Origin: Gammaproteobacteria bacterium
GTDB lineage: Bacteria > Pseudomonadota > Gammaproteobacteria > JACKNK01
Length of the DNA: 64,000 nt
Reading direction: 5' to 3'
NCBI GenBank assembly: GCA_049604295.1
Contig: JBMYTL010000007.1
Span: forward strand, 8,172-72,171
Of the stretch, positions 20,196 to 46,711 are shown piece after piece. Made by a program: the position numbers and the translations under genes. Position 1 is the stretch's first letter. Each line of letters starts with the position of its first letter. The notes beneath the pieces are model-generated. The model was given only the letters and a program-made list of their open reading frames with translations. It did not search any database and had not been told where the DNA came from.

Positions 20196-22100
20196 ATGAG
20201 CGCCGAAGCCCGCTTTCCGTTGTTGGAAAGCATCAACTCCCCCGAAGACCTGCGCCAGCTCGATTCCACGCAGTTGCAGGCGGTGGCGGACGAACTGCGT
20301 GCCTTCGTCATCGATTCGGTCTCTCGCACCGGCGGCCATTTCGCCGCCGGACTGGGCACCGTGGAACTGACCTGTGCCCTGCATCACGTATTCAACACCC
20401 CGGATGACCGTCTGGTCTGGGACGTCGGGCACCAGACCTATCCCCATAAGATCCTTACCGGAAGGCGTGACCGAATGGACAGCATCCGCAAACGTGATGG
20501 TCTGTCCGGTTTCCCGAAACGCGGAGAATCCCCGTACGACACCTTCGGTGTCGGGCATGCGGGCACCTCGGTGGGGGCCGCTCAAGGCATGGCGGAAGCC
20601 GCGCGCCTTACGGGGTCTGAGCGCAAAACAGTGGCGATCATCGGCGACGGTGCCATGACCTGCGGCATGGCCTTCGAAGCGCTCAACCATGCGGGTGACA
20701 TCGAATCCGACATGCTGGTCATCCTCAATGACAACAACATGTCCATCTCGCCCAACGTGGGCGCGTTATCGAACTACTTCACCCGCATCATGAGCGGCCC
20801 GCTGTATAGCACCATGCGCGAGGGCGGGAAGCAGTTGCTGCGTCATGTGCCGCCGGTGCGCGAGCTGGCAAAGCGCGCGGAGGAACACATGAAGGGCATG
20901 GTCAGCCCGGGCACCTTGTTCGAGGAAATGGGTTTTACCTACTACGGGCCCATAGACGGTCACGATCTCGGAACCCTGGTGAGCACCCTGCAGAACCTCA
21001 GAGCACTCAAGGGTCCGCGCCTGTTGCACATCGTCACGCGCAAGGGCAAAGGCTACGAGCCCGCGGAGAGCGACCCGGTGAAATGGCATGGGGTCGCTCC
21101 CTTTGACCCGCAAACCGGCAAAGGTGCCCCGCCTCCCGCTCCGGGCAAGGCGCGTCCCAGCTATACCGCCATATTCGGCCAGTGGCTCTGTGACATGGCC
21201 GAAACCGACCCCCGGCTGGTCGGCATCACGCCGGCCATGCGCGAGGGATCAGGTCTCGTCGAGTTCGCCAAGCGTTTTCCGGATCGCTATTACGACGTCG
21301 CGATCGCTGAACAGCATGCGGTGACCCTGGCGGCGGGCCTTGCCTGTGACGGTGTCAAACCCGTCGTGGCCATCTACTCGACATTCCTGCAAAGAGCCTA
21401 CGACCAGGTCGTGCATGACGTGGACCTTCAAAACCTGCCGGTCCTGTTCGCGGTGGACCGCGCCGGCCTGGTGGGGCCCGATGGCGCCACCCACGCGGGC
21501 AGTTTCGACCTGTCCTATCTGCGCTGTCTGCCGAATATGGCGATCCTCGCCCCCAGCGACGAGAACGAGTGTCGGCAGATGCTGTACACCGGCTTTATGC
21601 ATGACGGGCCCTGCACGGTCCGCTATCCCAGGGGCACCGGCCCGGGCGTGGACATTCAACAGGCCATGACGGCACTACCCTGGGCCACCGGCGAAGTACG
21701 ACGTGAGGGCCGGGGCGTGGCGTTGTTGAGCTTCGGCGCGGTTCTACCGGCGGTCATCGAGGCCGCTGAGGAACTCAATGCCACGGTCGCGAACATGCGT
21801 TTCATCAAACCGCTCGACGAAACGCTGGTCACACGGCTTGCCCAGGAACACGATGTGCTGGTGACCGTTGAGGACAACGCGGTCCTCGGCGGCGCGGGCT
21901 CCGCCGTGAATGAGTGTCTTCTGCGCAATGCACACGACGCCGCCTCCAGGCCATCAGTGCTCAACCTCGGACTCCCTGACCGCTACCAGGATCACGGTTC
22001 GCGCGAGGAACTGCTGCGGGAGGCAGGACTTGATCGTGACGGGATCGTCAGCGCCGTCAGGGCTGTGCTTACTGAGTCGCAACCAGAATCTGCGGCGTGA
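20196..22100 (+). CDS. dxs: 1-deoxy-D-xylulose-5-phosphate synthase
   Basis: [17 protein letters not shown]-terminus, [17 protein letters not shown] motif [18 protein letters not shown] ... LNDN. Confidence 0.96.
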
Positions 22101-24735
22101 GCAGGACGGCCACGGCGTAAGTCGGCGTCATGGCGGCGACCAGCAGCCCGAGCACCACGATCTCGCGCATCGCATCGCCCCCCAGGGGCAGCGCGAAGCT
22201 GCCGCCGACCAGTGCCACGAGAACCGTGGCCAAAACGACCCATTGCGGTCGCATCAGGGGTGCGGACATCAGATTTTCCATGACGGGAAGCCCCGCGCGC
22301 CCCTGCACGAGCACCTGCATCGCTGACGCCATACCCAGGAGCAGGATCAGCGGCAGGAAAGCGATGTTCACGTAGTTCCATGCCTCATCGGACAACCAGA
22401 TCCAGGCCGACACCGTGAACACAAGGCCCATCAAGGCCCCGCCCATGAGCAACCCATCGGTCCAACGCCAGCCCACGAGCATCACCAGCGCCACACCGGC
22501 CATAAGCATGAGAAGCACCCCCTTGGCCATGCCCCAGCCCACCGTGGCCGTGGCGCGGTAGATATCCACCGGGGCTCCAATGATCGCGCGGTGTACACGC
22601 CGCACACCTTCCATGTAATCGGCCATACCCACCACGTTGTCGACAGCGCTGGATGGCATGATTTCCATACGTAGCAAGCCATCGCTGGACTTCCAGTAAT
22701 CCACCAGGTCCCGTGGCAGTCTTTTCTCCGTCAGCTCTCCGGTGTTCAGGGCCTCGGAAACCAGCCCATACGCTACCGGATACGTACCCAGAATTGCCCG
22801 TTCCACGTGTCGGATGAGGTTGCGCCGACCGGCAAGATCGTTTTTGAGCCTGTCGCGCAACACACCACTGGTTTCAGCCAATCGGCCGACCGCGGTGGCG
22901 AGCTCGGGAGGGATCCTCTGACCATTGAGAGACCGCAGGGCGGCACGCAGGTCCGGCAGACTTTTCATAAGGTCCGCACCCGCCCCGCGTGGCCCCTGCG
23001 TCCGCGCCGTCTCGAAACCACCCATCAGCAGGCGCAGGCGGGCGAGACGCTTCAGGCGTCCCTCCTGGCCCGGGGGCAGATAGGACAGCAAAGAATCGGT
23101 GCGTGACACCGCGTTGGAGGCATTGAGCCGCTCGGACAGGGCCGCCAGCTCGGAAAAATCATTGACCTGTGTGTTGAGATGCCACGGTGACACCACCGGC
23201 TCGGCCAATAACTCACGGAAGGTCACGGCGGCTTCCCCTCTGATTCCGTAGATGCTCAGGGGGTTGCCGTCGAAGGCCTTGAGGGGAATCACCCCCGCGC
23301 CAATCACGCTCAGCAGCAGCAGCGGCAACAAGGCCATGCGGCGATAGTTAAAGCCCATCCCCGCCAGCACGGCGCCCATGCTCACGCCCTGGATCGAGTC
23401 GCGCGGACCTTCCGGAGCTTTGAACATGTGCAGGAACGCCGGCATGAAGGTGACTGTCACCGCCAAAGCGATCACCCCGCCCGCAGCGCTGACAGTGCCG
23501 AACTCGACGATGCCATCGCGGCCCAGGATGATCAGCGCAAAGCCGGAGCCGAACGCGGTCACCGCGGCCATGATCATCGCCGCACCGGTGCGCATCCCGG
23601 CACCTACCAGGGCCCGGTCATTGGGCAGGGCAGCGATACGGCCGGAAAAATAGGCCATTCCCAGATTGATGGAGAAGTGCGTGGCCAAAGCGGCACTGAC
23701 CAGCACGGCCGCTCCGCTGAGCAGATTCACCGTGCCGAAAAAAAACACCGCCAGGCCCACGGCCGCCGTGCCCGCCAACAGGGCCGATATTCCAACGGCC
23801 ACGGCAATCCTCATGGAGCGGATACCCAGATAGAGCATCAGGCCCGCCAGCCCCGTGGCCAGGAACAGGGCCACCCAATTGAACTCCGCCAGCTCCGAAT
23901 CAGATACCGACAGCAGACCCTGGCCGGTGATCCGCACACGAACCCCTTCGCCAAGGCTGAGGGACCCCGCCGCGGCACGCAGACGATCAGCCAGTTTCTT
24001 AAGGGCCTGGCCCTCACGCTGGGCGGGATCGGGAGCGATGCGCAGGATGCGCCGGTGACCACTATCCGGCCGACGGTCAAAAACCAGGTCCAACCAGGAC
24101 ACCGGCGTGCTGTTGCCTTTCAGTGCCGCCTCCATGGCATCAGTGAGTGCATCCAACACCGGCACGGGCAGCAGGTCCCCCGCATGCTCCCGACGGGCCA
24201 ACTCCGTCAGCCGCGTGGTCAGATGCCCGATGCGCGGCTTCTCGGGCAGCCCGCCCATGAGCGGTTGCAGAACCAGGAGCCGACCCTCGAAACGGCGCAT
24301 CTGCTCCTCGTCGAGACTGAGCAGGCGCAATCCCGCAAGCTCCGAAACACCTTGCGGGTCGTAGACATGCACCACGCCCGGGTCACGACCGATACGTTCG
24401 ATCAGGGCCGCGGCCGCCTCGTGGACGGGCTCTTCCGCCGGTCCATCGATCACCGCGAGAATCGGTTCATGCGCCAAGGGAAACCGCGCGCGGAAATCAC
24501 GCTCCACCTGACGGCGGTTGAGATCAGGCTTCGCGAGGGACAGGGGGCTGGCATCAAAACCCACGCGGGCGTGGATGTACTGTACGGACAGCACCAATGC
24601 GACCAGGGCCGCCGGTACGACCAACCAGGCCATACGCCGGGCGAAGCCCATCCAGGCCACCACGGCCCGAGCCAGGGACAGCGTGATCAGGTCTGAACGC
24701 AGTCCATCGGGCGATTGCGAAGCACCGGAGGCCAT
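22069..24735 (-). CDS. RND/MMPL-superfamily transporter, HpnN-like
   Basis: 888 aa, two 6-TM bundles each preceded by a large periplasmic loop. Start codon shares one base with the squalene synthase stop (TGATG). Confidence 0.78.
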
Positions 24736-39428: not shown

Positions 39429-39476
39429 GCCGGTGGATCAGGCCGCCGGTGGATCAGGCCGCCAGAGGGTCAGGCC
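39429..39476. repeat. 16-bp tandem repeat x3 (gccggtggatcaggcc x2 plus degenerate gccagagggtcaggcc)
   Basis: Read directly. The third unit overlaps the holA stop codon (39470-39472). Confidence 0.95.
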
Positions 39477-40519
39477 GAATTCGCCATTATACGTCGCGCC
39501 ATCCGCTGCCCGGAACACAGTTGACTGAGTGCGACGCTCACTTCGAGAAGTTGCGTCCACGGCTCACCTGTTTCCGCGCCTTTCGCGATCCGGTCCGCAC
39601 GGGCGCAGGCCCTCTGGATGGTGAGCAAACCGGCCGCACGGACGTGACGCAATGCGGCACGGTAGGGAGCCGCGCGCTGCGTGAACAGTCGCTGTTCGCG
39701 CAAGACCCGGTCGAGGGCCTGACCCTGGTCCCGCGCGGCGGCCAGCAGTCCCAGCTTGCGCACTCCATCCGCCAGCACCCAGGTGATGAAGACCTCGGAG
39801 ACGCCCTCTCCGCGCAAACCTTCCAGAACATGTACGGCCCGCGCTGCCTGGCCATTGAGCGCGGCATTCACCAGGTCGTAGGGATCGAAACGCGAACTGT
39901 CGGCCACGGCCGCACGCGCCTGTTCGAGGCTGACCGCGCCGGGACCGCAGAGCAGAGCCAGTTTGGATACCTCCTGCGCGGCGGCCAGCAGATTGCCCTC
40001 CACGCGTTCAACCAGCAGTTGCACTACATCGGGCTCGGGCTGCATTCCGGCTTCACGCAGACGCCGCCCCACCCATCCCGGCAGGGCCTTCAATTCCACC
40101 GGCCAGATACGCACCACGACGCCCGCCGCATCGATTGCCTTCACCCATTTCCCCCCCATGGCCCGCTTATCCATGCGCCCGGTGGAGATCAACAACACCG
40201 TGTCCTCGGGCGGCCGCTCCGCATAGGTGGCCAGGGCCTTGGCCCCATCGACGCCCGGGGACGGTTTGGGCATGCGGACATCCAGAATACGTCGGCTGGC
40301 GAACAGGGACAGCGCATCGGCCTCTCCGGCGAGCGCCCCCCAATCGAACGAGGCATCCACATGAAACACCTGGCGCTCGTCGAACCCCTGTCCCCGGGCC
40401 GCCGCCCGAATGGCGTCAGCGGCCTCCATCATCTGCAACGGCTCATCACCGCTGAGCAGGTAGACCGGCGCCAAGCCCTGTTGGAGCGTTCTGTGCAGGT
40501 CCTCGGGGCGGGTCTCCAC
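39470..40519 (-). CDS. holA: DNA polymerase III delta subunit
   Basis: 349 aa, PVYLLSGDEPLQMMEA N-terminus. Conserved leuS-lptE-holA order. GTG start. Confidence 0.85.
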   Translation of the reverse strand: METRPEDLHRTLQQGLAPVYLLSGDEPLQMMEAADAIRAAARGQGFDERQVFHVDASFDWGALAGEADALSLFASRRILDVRMPKPSPGVDGAKALATYAERPPEDTVLLISTGRMDKRAMGGKWVKAIDAAGVVVRIWPVELKALPGWVGRRLREAGMQPEPDVVQLLVERVEGNLLAAAQEVSKLALLCGPGAVSLEQARAAVADSSRFDPYDLVNAALNGQAARAVHVLEGLRGEGVSEVFITWVLADGVRKLGLLAAARDQGQALDRVLREQRLFTQRAAPYRAALRHVRAAGLLTIQRACARADRIAKGAETGEPWTQLLEVSVALSQLCSGQRMARRIMANSA

Positions 40520-40527
40520 GCGCGGGC

Positions 40528-41037
40528 TCAGAGCAAGCGGCGACGCAACTGCGTGAACAGCGAGGCCCCGAGCTGGGCCTGCAGGCGGGCGGTCAACTCG
40601 TCCCGTTCGGTTTCAGTGGCCAGGGGATCGGCCGGATTCGAACGGTAGCGGCCAGTGACGAGCACCGTACCGGCAATCGGCTCCCGCCCCTCCAGAAGCA
40701 GGCGATAACGAACCGAGTTGCGCACCCGGTATTCCACGGCGACCCCGGTGTTGTTCGTGGTCACGTCGTCTCGCTGCACCTCGACCTTGGACAGCTCGAG
40801 AATGCCGTCAGCCGCCTGGGGCGAGGCGACTTCCTGGCCCCCGGCACCGCGAATCTGATCACGCAGACTGCGCCGGAACTCCAGATCAGCGGGATCGGTT
40901 TGCAGGTAGATGCGTTCAAGCCCCTCGGGCAGGGCCACGGAACCCCGCAGCTGATACCCGCAGCCCACCACCAGGAAGGCCAGGGCCAGGGCCAGGCCTG
41001 CACGACAGATGAAGGCGAGGTGCGTTCGGCGATTCAT
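40528..41037 (-). CDS. lptE: LPS-assembly lipoprotein LptE
   Basis: Lipobox LVVGCGYQLRG from ATG 41037. Follows leuS as in most proteobacteria. Confidence 0.82.
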   Translation of the reverse strand: MNRRTHLAFICRAGLALALAFLVVGCGYQLRGSVALPEGLERIYLQTDPADLEFRRSLRDQIRGAGGQEVASPQAADGILELSKVEVQRDDVTTNNTGVAVEYRVRNSVRYRLLLEGREPIAGTVLVTGRYRSNPADPLATETERDELTARLQAQLGASLFTQLRRRLL

Positions 41038-41062
41038 GATGGTTTGCAAACCCGTGCGTGGA

Positions 41063-43792
<2,730 letters not shown>

Positions 43793-43917: not shown

Positions 43918-44604
43918 ATGCACGCTTCCGACGCCCCACCATTGAGCACGCCGCGCAGCCGGTCATTGAGGATCTGGATCCTGTCGCTTGGGCTGTGCAC
44001 GCTGATTGCGGCGGTTCCCGGCCATGCGGACGCGACTTCCGGCCTGTTCGGCACCACCGAGAAACGCCACCCACGGAACATCAAGCTGTTCCCCAAATGG
44101 GAGGGCATGCGCGAGCGCGCCAAGTCCGACCCGGTCCGGATCCCCGCCTGCAAGTCCAGCTTCTTCACCAGCTGCTTTCAGAAGGACCTGGACGAGCGCC
44201 TCCCTGAGATACGCAAACTCAGCCGACGCGAACAGGTCGAATCGGTACACCAATGGGTCAACCGCATGCAGTACGAGCGCGACAGTACGACCTACGGTGA
44301 ACGCGATTACTGGGCGGCACGTTATGAATCCCAGGAAAAAGACCAGGGGGATTGCGAGGACTACGCGATTTCCAAGTATTACGTGCTCAGGAAACTCGGC
44401 TTTCCCGTAAGCAGCCTGCGCATAGCCGGCGTCAAGGACACCAACCTCAATGTGGGCCATGCTGTCCTGATCGTCTACCTCGATGGTGAGGTCCTGGTGC
44501 TCGACAACCGCATCAAGCACGTCGTCACCGAAGACCGGATCGTTCATTACCTGCCCGTCTACACCATCAATGAAGAGAACTGGTGGAGGCACCGCCCACG
44601 TTGA
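43918..44604 (+). CDS. Bacterial transglutaminase-like cysteine proteinase (BTLCP / LapG-like, DUF920)
   Basis: Signal peptide LRIWILSLGLCTLIAAVPGHA. Cys-His-Asp pattern GDCEDYAISKYYVL ... VGHAVLIVYLDGEVLVLDNR. Confidence 0.82.
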   Translation: MHASDAPPLSTPRSRSLRIWILSLGLCTLIAAVPGHADATSGLFGTTEKRHPRNIKLFPKWEGMRERAKSDPVRIPACKSSFFTSCFQKDLDERLPEIRKLSRREQVESVHQWVNRMQYERDSTTYGERDYWAARYESQEKDQGDCEDYAISKYYVLRKLGFPVSSLRIAGVKDTNLNVGHAVLIVYLDGEVLVLDNRIKHVVTEDRIVHYLPVYTINEENWWRHRPR

Positions 44605-44632
44605 CCCATCCGGGGTCCCGGGAACCCATGTC

Positions 44633-46711
44633 ATGACCGAACATATCGACACATCCTCGAAACGCTCAATGCTTCTGGCCTGGGGTGGACTGCTGGTCTT
44701 TCTCATCGCGGGGTTTGTCGCGGTCACCGTGGTTGCCGAGCGCAATTTCCAACAAAGCCTGCTGTCCTGGCAGGACCGCTTGGGGCTCGTACTGGACAGC
44801 CGCAATGAATCCATCGATCGCTGGCTCACCCGGCAGGTTTCAACGGTCAACGACCTTGCTTCAAACGGTTCACTGCAGTTGTACCTGGCGTTGCTCAGCT
44901 CGGGGGACGGACTCGAGCAGGGCGAAGACTCCGCGGAACTTGTCTACCTGAAGGACATGCTGGTCCTGGCGGCCCATCGGGGAGGCTTCGCCGTGGATCA
45001 GAGCACCCGCGTCATCAATGCCAATGTCGATGCCACACCACTGGCCGGTATGGCGTTGATCGATGCCAATGGCCGAATCCAGGTCGCCACCCCTGATATG
45101 CCCGTACTCGGCCCGGAGGCCCGGGCCGCCATTGAAGAGGCGCGCACCCTGCGACGGCCCGTGCAGATCGACATCCACAAAAACATCGTCGGCACCCCTT
45201 CCATGGGGTTCGTCGTCCCCGTGACCGCGATTCAGGACCCGGAGGCAATCGTCGGCGTGGTCGTCGGCATCAAACCCATCGCGGGGGAACTCTACCCTTT
45301 GCTGCGTCAACGGGGCCTGACCACGCGCACCCATGAGATTTACCTGGTCCGGGCCCGTGACCGGATCATCGAATACATCAGCCCGTTGAGTGATGACACG
45401 CCGCCACTGACCCGCCAACTGGGCATGGACACCCCCGGGCTTGCCGCGGCTTTCGCCATCGCGAACACCGGGCGGTTCACCCGGGGTGTCGATTACCTCG
45501 GGCGCAAGGTACTGGTGTCATCCCGGGCCGTGGACCGGACCGATTGGGTGCTGGTCCATACCATCACCGCGGAGGAAGCCCTGGCCGACGCGCAGCAACG
45601 GCGCCGCGACCTGTACGCCGGCCTGGTCCTGGTTCTGCTTGTTCTCTCTGTCTCTCTGGTCGCCGCCTGGCGACATGGCTCGAGCGTGCGCCATCGCATG
45701 AGCGCAGATGCGCTGCGCACCACCAATGAGGAAATCGAGGCCCAGCGAGCCCTGCTCAAGAGCGTCACCGAGAACACCAACGACTTCATCCTCATACTCG
45801 ACGCCGAGGGTGGGATCGTGTTCGCCAACGCAGCTACCGGCAGGCAATGCGGGACTGTCCCCTTGGAGCTGGTGGGCAAACCCATGGCAACGGTTTTCGG
45901 CCGACACGTGGCCGCGCAGTTGGAGGGCGCGGCCGATCATGCCGCGAGCGCACATCACGAACAGACCCTCACGACCTCGATCTGCACGAAGGATGAGCGC
46001 ACGTTCGCGGTGAGTGCGTCACCCATCCCCGACGGTCGCACACTGATGGTCCTGCGTGATGTCACCGATCTGCTGGCCGCCGAGGAACGCAGTCAACGCA
46101 CCATGTGGCAGCTGGTGCAGACCCTGGCCGGGGTGCTCGATTCCCACGACCCGCACTCCTCCAATCACTCACGCAAGGTCGTCGCGGTGGCCAACGCCAT
46201 CGGTGAGGAACTGCACCTTTCAGAGCAGGACATGGATTCCCTGCGCATCGCGGCGAACCTGATGAATATCGGCAAAATCACCATTCCCGCCGAGATATTG
46301 AGCAAGGAAACCAAGCTCTCGGACGAGGAATTCGCCCTGATCCGCAACGCCATCCCGAACGCAGCGAAGATGCTTTCGGGAGTCGAGTTCGACGGTCCGG
46401 TGGTGGAAGCGATCGCCCAGAGCACCGAACTGCTCAACGGCAAAGGGTATCCACTGGGTTTGTCCGGCGACCAGATCATCATCCACGCCCGCATCCTCGC
46501 GATTGCCAATGCCTTTGTCGCCATGACCCATCCGCGCTCGTTCCGGCGCGCCATGGACCCGGATAAGGCCTCGGGCATCCTCATGCAGGAAACCGACGAG
46601 AAGTACGACCGTCGGGTCGTAGCCGCCCTGATCGTGGCCCTGGGCGGGGAAACCGGGGCGCGATGGCGCGAGGAATGGATGGGCGCGGAGCACACCCGGG
46701 ACGCCGACTGA
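44633..46711 (+). CDS. Membrane sensor: TM, ~285-aa periplasmic domain, TM, PAS, degenerate HD-GYP domain
   Basis: TM1 LLAWGGLLVFLIAGFVAVTVVA, TM2 LYAGLVLVLLVLSVSLVAAW. PAS (LLKSVTENTNDFILILDAEGGIVFAN). HD-GYP-like C-terminus with GKGYPLGL retained but HDIGK read as MNIGK and HHE as STE. Confidence 0.8.
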   Translation: MTEHIDTSSKRSMLLAWGGLLVFLIAGFVAVTVVAERNFQQSLLSWQDRLGLVLDSRNESIDRWLTRQVSTVNDLASNGSLQLYLALLSSGDGLEQGEDSAELVYLKDMLVLAAHRGGFAVDQSTRVINANVDATPLAGMALIDANGRIQVATPDMPVLGPEARAAIEEARTLRRPVQIDIHKNIVGTPSMGFVVPVTAIQDPEAIVGVVVGIKPIAGELYPLLRQRGLTTRTHEIYLVRARDRIIEYISPLSDDTPPLTRQLGMDTPGLAAAFAIANTGRFTRGVDYLGRKVLVSSRAVDRTDWVLVHTITAEEALADAQQRRRDLYAGLVLVLLVLSVSLVAAWRHGSSVRHRMSADALRTTNEEIEAQRALLKSVTENTNDFILILDAEGGIVFANAATGRQCGTVPLELVGKPMATVFGRHVAAQLEGAADHAASAHHEQTLTTSICTKDERTFAVSASPIPDGRTLMVLRDVTDLLAAEERSQRTMWQLVQTLAGVLDSHDPHSSNHSRKVVAVANAIGEELHLSEQDMDSLRIAANLMNIGKITIPAEILSKETKLSDEEFALIRNAIPNAAKMLSGVEFDGPVVEAIAQSTELLNGKGYPLGLSGDQIIIHARILAIANAFVAMTHPRSFRRAMDPDKASGILMQETDEKYDRRVVAALIVALGGETGARWREEWMGAEHTRDAD

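Follow-up and report, generated by a model that had tools for sequence, protein, structure and literature searches.

A DvhD/DvhG-type protease and receptor gene pair with a metal-ligand-deficient HD-GYP domain in an uncultured gammaproteobacterium

Introduction

The closest described counterpart of the genes considered here is the DvhD/DvhG pair of Desulfovibrio (Nitratidesulfovibrio) vulgaris Hildenborough, where DvhD (DVU1020/BfsD), a membrane receptor, controls the protease DvhG (DVU1019/BfsG) in a manner that depends on cyclic di-GMP (c-di-GMP) (Karbelkar et al., PNAS 2024, PMC10990149; Font et al., Nat Commun 2026, PMC13090378). Here we describe two adjacent genes found in a 64,000-nucleotide stretch of contig JBMYTL010000007.1 (assembly GCA_049604295.1) from the metagenome-assembled genome of an uncultured gammaproteobacterium; the whole of this stretch is called the window below. 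The first gene encodes a BTLCP-family periplasmic protease and the second an inner-membrane receptor with a degenerate HD-GYP domain, and the pair probably belongs to the DvhD/DvhG class of switches, whose architecture was published in 2024 (PMC10990149) and solved in 2026 (PMC13090378). The first-pass annotation of this DNA, which was made from the sequence alone, knew of no characterised example of such an architecture and is out of date in this respect.

DvhD consists of a transmembrane (TM) segment, a periplasmic dCache domain, a second TM segment, a PAS domain and an HD-GYP domain in which SQ stands in place of HD and MN in place of HH (PMC13090378, PMC10990149). The PAS-HD-GYP fragment binds c-di-GMP with a dissociation constant of 322 nM, and in a reconstituted Pseudomonas fluorescens system DvhG was under the c-di-GMP-dependent control of DvhD (PMC10990149). 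DvhD keeps two metal ligands and no hydrolysis of c-di-GMP was detected with any metal tested; in the crystal, the metal-free HD-GYP domain holds c-di-GMP, three molecules per dimer (PMC13090378). A [T/A/P]AAG site is where the protease cuts its adhesin substrates, DvhA and DVU1545 (PMC13090378, PMC10990149).

The gene pair and its relationship to DvhD/DvhG

The receptor gene (44633-46711, + strand) encodes a DvhD-like protein of 692 amino acids with the order TM1, dCache, TM2, PAS and degenerate HD-GYP. When its C-terminal 232 residues are compared with the sequences of the Protein Data Bank (PDB), the best match is 9rc0/9rbz, deposited as 'HD domain/sensory box protein' (E 9e-42); with the single sequence the match to 9rc0 spans residues equivalent to 113-321 (E 8.9e-42), and with a profile of the family it covers profile positions 375-690 (E 5.5e-77). 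These two entries are the structures of DvhD's PAS/HD-GYP part and of its HD-GYP domain with c-di-GMP bound (PMC13090378). Further sequence matches in the PDB include the cGAMP-specific enzyme V-cGAP3 (5z7c, E 4.8e-23), which is second after DvhD, and PmGH (4mcw, E 3.7e-19). Hydropathy places the TM segments at residues ~13-35 and 327-346, on either side of a periplasmic domain of ~290 residues, and the cytoplasmic part begins with a PAS domain (residues 375-479, 45755-46069, + strand; Pfam PAS_4 E 4.6e-11, PAS E 5.4e-9). The start at 44633 (ATG) agrees with NCBI protein P0001 (100% identity) and with the alignment of homologs. A start further upstream, at 44483, which would give a 742-residue protein overlapping the protease gene by 122 nt, is supported neither by the homolog alignment nor by the NCBI model.

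The protease gene (43918-44604, + strand) encodes a DvhG/LapG-like periplasmic cysteine protease of 228 amino acids that matches the Pfam family PF06035 (Peptidase_C93/BTLCP) with an E-value of 3.3e-19 and aligns to the LapG structures 4u65 and 4fgo with E-values of ~1e-17. In this alignment the protease segments GDCEDYA, GHAVL and LVLD are in register with the catalytic Cys, His and Asp of LapG, which gives a complete triad of C146 (44353-44355), H181 (44458-44460) and D196 (44503-44505), all on the + strand. The calcium motif D-C-E is also intact, with D145 and E147 flanking C146, and is the counterpart of D316/C317/E318 of DvhG, the residues mutated in the structural study (PMC13090378). 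At the N-terminus Arg residues are followed by a hydrophobic segment (residues 16-37) that ends PGHA/DA, a pattern that indicates a signal peptide covering approximately residues 1-37. A lipoprotein N-terminus was considered and rejected: the 'LGLC' sequence has Leu at position -1 and is no canonical lipobox. Against the NCBIfam LapG model the protein scores 93.7 bits, with an equivalog cutoff of 320, and judged by this score it is a BTLCP relative and no LapG equivalog.

Both genes are on the + strand and are separated by 28 nt, and they are probably transcribed as one unit; a promoter scan upstream of the pair returned no sigma-70-like site, a result that is uninformative for this organism. 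The first-pass annotation had given the two reading frames and the gap between them exactly. Its protease with a Cys/His/Asp pattern and a signal peptide is borne out by the PF06035 match, the LapG alignment and hydropathy, and the layout it proposed for the second protein (TM, periplasmic domain, TM, PAS, HD-GYP-like domain) agrees with Pfam and hydropathy.

A degenerate HD-GYP domain

The HD-GYP domain occupies residues 498-662 (46124-46618, + strand) and matches Pfam HD_5 with an E-value of 1.4e-39. The ligands of the catalytic metal centre were mapped onto it by a HMMER alignment to PmGH (4mcw) and by aligning 83 members of the family with PmGH and DvhD in MAFFT. For PmGH we take the ligand numbering to be that of Bellini et al. 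2014, which agrees with the PDB chain when an offset of 6 is applied throughout. On this numbering, E185 of PmGH corresponds to H508 of the receptor, H221/D222 to M544/N545 (so that HD reads MN), H250 to A573, H276/H277 to S597/T598 (HH reads ST) and D305 to N626, and only H189 is kept, as H512, which leaves one metal ligand out of eight. The GYP motif itself is intact (G605-Y606-P607). The loss is a property of the whole family, in which the position of D222 is N in 77 of the 83 sensors and that of D305 is N in 78. The first-pass annotation had aligned this domain by eye; both alignments reproduce its register and its ligand losses, and the five motif strings that it quoted, with GYP kept, are present at residues 506, 540, 570, 597 and 624.

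These data bear directly on the simplest alternative view of the locus, namely that the receptor gene encodes an active c-di-GMP phosphodiesterase of the HD-GYP type that lies beside a protease gene by chance. The strong HD_5 match, the retained GYP motif and the source annotation of the protein as 'HD domain-containing phosphohydrolase' would all fit such an enzyme. However, H512 is the sole survivor among the eight metal ligands, the substitutions have become fixed throughout the family, and DvhD, which has two ligands, showed no hydrolysis with the metals tried (PMC13090378). We therefore regard an active phosphodiesterase as very improbable. On the strength of the alignments, the HD-GYP domain is predicted to be a c-di-GMP receptor module from which catalysis is not to be expected, and this matters for annotation: proteins of this kind carry the label 'HD domain-containing phosphohydrolase' and are almost certainly receptors, not enzymes.

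The nucleotide-binding site

To compare the nucleotide pocket, the DvhD numbering was set from the residues named in the structural paper, and the two anchors K520-A-P-Y523 and P567-S-R569 are mutually consistent. In the 83-member alignment five of the eight canonical c-di-GMP contacts of DvhD are identical in the receptor, one is conservatively replaced and two are changed. The identical ones are L577 (receptor L562, kept in 80 of the 83 sensors), Y621 (Y606), M646 (M631), R650 (R635, invariant in all 83) and E668 (E653), and Y652 is replaced by another aromatic residue, F637. In DvhD, the guanine-reading residue E668 hydrogen-bonds the guanine amino group, and Y621, the tyrosine of GYP, touches the phosphate of c-di-GMP (PMC13090378). 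This set of contacts is compatible with the binding of c-di-GMP, short of proving it, and a pocket that is maintained while the catalytic metal centre has decayed is what would mark a receptor.

It should be mentioned separately that the position of DvhD Y621 is variable within the family: it is Y in just 39 of the 83 members, among them the receptor described here (Y606), and the remaining members have GRP, GKP, GIP or a deletion.

The periplasmic domain

The periplasmic domain (residues 36-322, 44738-45598, + strand) is a dCache domain according to its AlphaFold 2 model and a Foldseek search; the Pfam dCache_1 profile matches the receptor with 36 bits, which is under its cutoff of 45. The model, built with 25 homologs, has a predicted local distance difference test score (pLDDT) of 88.9 and a predicted template modelling score (pTM) of 0.85. 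When it is searched against the whole PDB with Foldseek, the best match is 9rc2, the periplasmic domain of DvhD (E 4.4e-12, template modelling scores 0.69/0.78). This entry was recovered by the structure-based search only: a sequence search of the PDB with the periplasmic domain found no relative, either with the single sequence (E <= 10) or with the family profile. In the model, helix alpha1 is broken at residues 77-78 (fragment helices 2-41 and 44-55), and the longest conserved periplasmic block, LAxNxSLQLY (L75-A76-x-N78-x-S80-L81-Q82-L83-Y84), lies over the alpha1 kink and the start of alpha1'. The broken alpha1 is highlighted in the description of DvhD, whose AlphaFold 3 model with DvhG has its interface in the alpha1/alpha1' region (PMC13090378). 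Since the AlphaFold 3 interface is placed in the same region, we infer that the conserved block may be tied to protease binding.

The nature of this domain brings forward a second alternative, in which the receptor works from the outside in: the dCache domain would bind a periplasmic small molecule, the protease or a product of the protease, the HD-GYP domain would be an output that signals through protein contacts in the cytoplasm instead of a receptor for c-di-GMP, and the BTLCP would make or process the signal. dCache domains are typically ligand sensors, and the Foldseek matches that follow 9rc2 are all classical dCache ligand-binding domains that come from chemoreceptors and kinases. The HD-GYP domain is separated from the membrane by a PAS domain, and the authors of the DvhD study could not exclude a periplasmic ligand of DvhD itself (PMC13090378). 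What speaks against a purely outside-in sensor is the conservation of the pocket in a domain with a decayed metal site (R635 in every sensor, L562 in nearly all of them, E653 kept), which points to selection for binding, together with the behaviour of the characterised homolog, which has a dissociation constant of 322 nM for c-di-GMP and responds to the nucleotide in cells (PMC10990149). We consider this alternative unlikely as a full explanation; signalling in both directions could nevertheless coexist with the mechanism favoured below.

Proposed mechanism

We think it quite probable that the two genes constitute an inside-out c-di-GMP switch of the DvhD/DvhG type. The 692-residue receptor would dimerise in the inner membrane via its PAS/stalk/HD-GYP module, and its metal-free HD-GYP pocket would take up c-di-GMP without hydrolysing it. 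Binding would alter the geometry of the stalk, and the change would be passed through the TM helices to the periplasmic dCache domain, which in the c-di-GMP-bound state would restrain the secreted, calcium-dependent BTLCP. A drop in c-di-GMP would then free the protease, which would clip the anchor of a surface protein at a [T/A/P]AA-G-type site, and the protein would be released. For the pair in the window, the binding of c-di-GMP, the direction of signalling and the control of the protease are proposed by homology to DvhD/DvhG. The first-pass annotation had suggested an inside-out switch in which the periplasmic domain sequesters the protease; the kind of switch is the one demonstrated for the homologous pair, and the sequestration is not established even for DvhD.

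Several points weigh against the inside-out reading. Two of the canonical contacts are changed, DvhD Y523 to H508 and K582 to F567. At the site of the third, bridging c-di-GMP, P567 is kept (P552) and the other two residues are not: K520 is replaced by H505 and R569 by E554, the latter position being E in 65 of the 83 members. Because two of the three bridging residues differ, the DvhD-style mode with three nucleotides per dimer, and with it the c-di-GMP-induced lock of the dimer, may not hold here. The generality of the bridging site is uncertain to the authors of the DvhD work themselves (PMC13090378), and the residues aligned here suggest that the third c-di-GMP may occur in the Desulfovibrio branch only. 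The identity to DvhD, as obtained from comparison with PDB constructs and the fold search rather than from a pairwise alignment to full-length DVU1020, is only ~50% for the HD-GYP domain and 15% for the dCache domain, and the latter could have a periplasmic ligand. The way in which DvhD restrains DvhG was called 'hitherto unknown' by its authors and is represented by an AlphaFold 3 model only (PMC13090378). Finally, the 64 kb of the window were found to contain no type I secretion system (T1SS), RTX protein or giant adhesin, Slam gene, gene similar to the 'c7' genes described below, or WGxW...PAAG leader.

The absence of a substrate gene from the window is no argument against function, because the second substrates of Lap and Dvh systems, for example MapA and DVU1545, are often encoded elsewhere (PMC13090378), and T1SS and adhesin genes may be present elsewhere in this genome too.

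The two changed contacts are also relevant to a third alternative, according to which the switch operates as proposed and responds to another ligand, such as 3'3'-cGAMP, pGpG or a different dinucleotide. In nano differential scanning fluorimetry, c-di-GMP and 3'3'-cGAMP stabilised the PAS/HD-GYP part of DvhD to a similar extent (PMC13090378), and V-cGAP3 stands directly behind DvhD among the sequence matches of the receptor. The isolated HD-GYP domain of DvhD, on the other hand, prefers c-di-GMP (PMC13090378), the residue that hydrogen-bonds the guanine amino group is conserved as E653, and no cGAMP synthase was identified among the ten largest open reading frames (ORFs) of the window, the only ones annotated. 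A different nucleotide ligand thus appears rather improbable, and c-di-GMP remains the favoured ligand of the proposed switch.

Conservation of the pair and genomic context

Relatives of the receptor were sought across GTDB, with each species represented by one genome. They were found in 356 species-level genomes of Gamma-, Beta- and Alphaproteobacteria, from which 79 loci were retrieved. Of these loci, 70 have a BTLCP gene, which in all but two of them lies directly beside the sensor gene, in tandem or divergently; in 31 loci, from Gamma- and Betaproteobacteria, it is directly upstream with both genes on the same strand, and in Alphaproteobacteria the arrangement is divergent. The loci without a BTLCP gene are mostly cut at a contig end or have no upstream sequence. 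The pairing is therefore conserved in related genomes.

The DvhD paper lists Sneathiella chinensis and other Alphaproteobacteria among the homologs of DvhD. Our collection likewise has a Sneathiella chinensis locus (L038), with a sensor that is 37% identical over residues 20-682, and the relatives collected here most likely are the DvhD family as its authors define it. The supplements of the DvhD paper make no mention of Gammaproteobacteria or Chromatiales.

In the window, the pair is divergent from a holA-lptE-leuS block (39470-43720, - strand) and is followed by genes for an AEC-family permease, an H+-pyrophosphatase, DsbC and aceE. The leuS-lptE-holA context recurs in four other loci (L001-L003 and L080), and the sensors of L002, L003 and L080, which come from gammaproteobacterial metagenome-assembled genomes, are 43% identical to that of the window. 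Since relatives of only this identity share the same context, the module appears to have been inherited stably, vertically and over a long term, at this spot. No RTX, HlyD or OEP gene adjoins the pair, and none is present in the leuS context of L001-L003 and L080 either. The module can thus exist alone in a housekeeping neighbourhood.

The largest ORFs of the window encode YhdP, dxs, ptsP, RNase G, rpoN and an 888-residue protein with multiple TM segments. The 888-residue protein (22069-24735, - strand), which lies beside dxs, has a layout of many predicted membrane segments like that of RND/MMPL transporters and no Pfam match at E <= 1e-5.

Sister clades and their export systems

A neighbor-joining tree of the sensors has three clades, which match the genomic context. 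The first clade, with the leuS context, comprises the window, L001, L002 and L003. The second clade consists of Gamma- and Betaproteobacteria, including Thiohalobacter, Thiogranum, Sulfuricella and Sulfurirhabdus, and in all 27 of its loci that have upstream sequence a SlipAM/TPR_Slam outer-membrane protein adjoins the pair (PF04575, SlipAM, 28 bits with a cutoff of 22). These Slam-linked loci are L004-L007, L009-L013, L015, L016, L019, L032, L034, L040, L044, L045, L048, L050, L052, L060, L062, L069, L070, L073, L074 and L079. Two loci that carry the label Desulfobulbaceae have the Slam gene after the sensor gene, on the same strand. The third clade is alphaproteobacterial, and close by its pairs are T1SS genes (ABC, HlyD, OEP), genes for giant RTX proteins and one for an EAL-like protein.

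In the second clade, the Slam gene is usually followed by a gene for a secreted protein of ~340-420 residues, which we call c7; examples of the two genes are L007:2381-3682(-) with L007:1009-2106(-), and L012:7714-9015(-) with L012:6355-7380(-). Database searches retrieved 47 relatives of c7, some of them with a PF01298 (TbpB_B_D) match, and an AlphaFold 2 model of c7 (pLDDT 81.5, residues 1-80 disordered) matches TbpB, NHBA-C, HphA hemophores, HpuA and hemophilin, each of which is a known cargo of Slam, that is, of the type XI secretion system (T11SS). A single invariant 'DDSxYxWGxWxxLxPAAG' sequence occurs in 44 of the 47 relatives, ~20 residues past the signal peptide; the c7 leader includes WGRWAVLAPAAG, and its PAAG fits the LapG/DvhG cleavage consensus. 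This combination suggests that the switch of the second clade governs T11SS cargo, which would possibly be a new class of LapG-type substrates. The literature that we searched contains no paper linking LapG to Slam, and a survey of the T11SS (PMC8406197) mentions neither transglutaminase-like proteases nor c-di-GMP.

For the window, the sister clade suggests by analogy a candidate type of substrate, a TbpB-like Slam/T11SS cargo with a WGxW...PAAG leader. It is possible, though doubtful, that the switch in the lineage of the window gates the release of a non-T1SS surface protein encoded elsewhere in the genome. If the Slam/T11SS candidate holds, c-di-GMP-controlled proteolysis of the LapG family would reach a second, unrelated route of export to the outer membrane.

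Two observations concern the alphaproteobacterial loci. In Sneathiella and relatives (L038, L065, L072 and L077), two BTLCP-sensor pairs flank one T1SS cluster, with HlyD-ABC on one side and OEP on the other, and the two sensors of each locus sit in different branches of the sensor tree, which suggests two parallel receptors per secretion locus. In approximately nine loci, a cytoplasmic EAL-like protein of ~420 residues is encoded directly beside the BTLCP gene (for example, L037:7755-9023(-) and L058:2333-3595(-)); it matches the C-terminal part only of the PF00563 profile (37.6 bits) and could be a local phosphodiesterase for c-di-GMP, or else a second receptor that is coupled to the switch.

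The phylogeny of the sensor tracks the export system (none, Slam/T11SS or T1SS/RTX), from which it appears that the module has been joined anew to different routes for surface proteins. The larger lead lies at the level of the family rather than in the copy from the window.

Comparison with known systems

The logic proposed for the pair is that of LapD/LapG, a system of Pseudomonas fluorescens that has orthologs in Legionella, Vibrio and Bordetella and in which a dead-enzyme receptor of c-di-GMP controls a periplasmic BTLCP that cuts the anchor of an adhesin. The proteases are homologous, as the alignment to the LapG structures indicates, but the one described here scores far under the LapG equivalog cutoff, and the receptors are unrelated in domain content: a domain-profile search detected no LapD_MoxY_N, HAMP, GGDEF or EAL domain in the receptor of the window. 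In proteases of the DvhG type the pocket into which a tryptophan of LapD docks is occluded, as noted in the DvhD/DvhG paper (PMC13090378).

With active HD-GYP enzymes (PmGH 4mcw, PA4781 4r8z, V-cGAP3 5z7c and RpfG), the receptor shares the fold, the GYP motif and the L/R/aromatic clamp contacts. It differs from them in the metal ligands, which are complete in the enzymes and replaced at seven of eight positions here, and in its N-terminal partner domains. Another relevant protein is Bd1817 (3tm8), an HD-GYP scaffold with non-canonical motifs for which phosphodiesterase activity was not demonstrated and which matches the family profile with an E-value of 2.2e-8. The 'YN-GYP' protein PA2572 is one more degenerate HD-GYP protein that is not known to have phosphodiesterase activity. 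Bd1817 and PA2572 are cytoplasmic, either stand-alone or of the response-regulator type, and have no dCache domain, BTLCP partner or demonstrated inside-out role.

DvhD/DvhG is the nearest counterpart. The receptor has the full architecture of DvhD, including an HD-GYP domain deficient in metal ligands, and DvhD is both the top sequence match of its cytoplasmic half and the top structural match of its periplasmic half; the broken alpha1/alpha1' helix and most of the canonical c-di-GMP contacts are common to both. In both cases the adjoining gene encodes a BTLCP with a C-H-D triad and a D-C-E calcium motif. The differences are as follows. DvhD belongs to the Desulfovibrionales, whereas the host here is an uncultured gammaproteobacterium; the HD and HH motifs read SQ and MN in DvhD and MN and ST here, where H250 is lost as well; and K520 and R569 of the bridging site are replaced by H and E. 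DvhG has a TM anchor and a linker of ~180 residues, whereas the protease of the window has a signal peptide of the cleavable type; signal peptides are present in most DvhG orthologs, according to the DvhD/DvhG paper (PMC13090378). The Dvh genes form an operon with an adhesin and a T1SS, whereas the pair described here lies beside leuS-lptE-holA, and no substrate gene was found in the window. These differences in lineage, stand-alone context, protease N-terminus, MN/ST motifs and bridging site are modest, and this copy otherwise adds little to what was described for DvhD/DvhG, apart from the evidence that this design occurs widely, well beyond the sulfate reducers.

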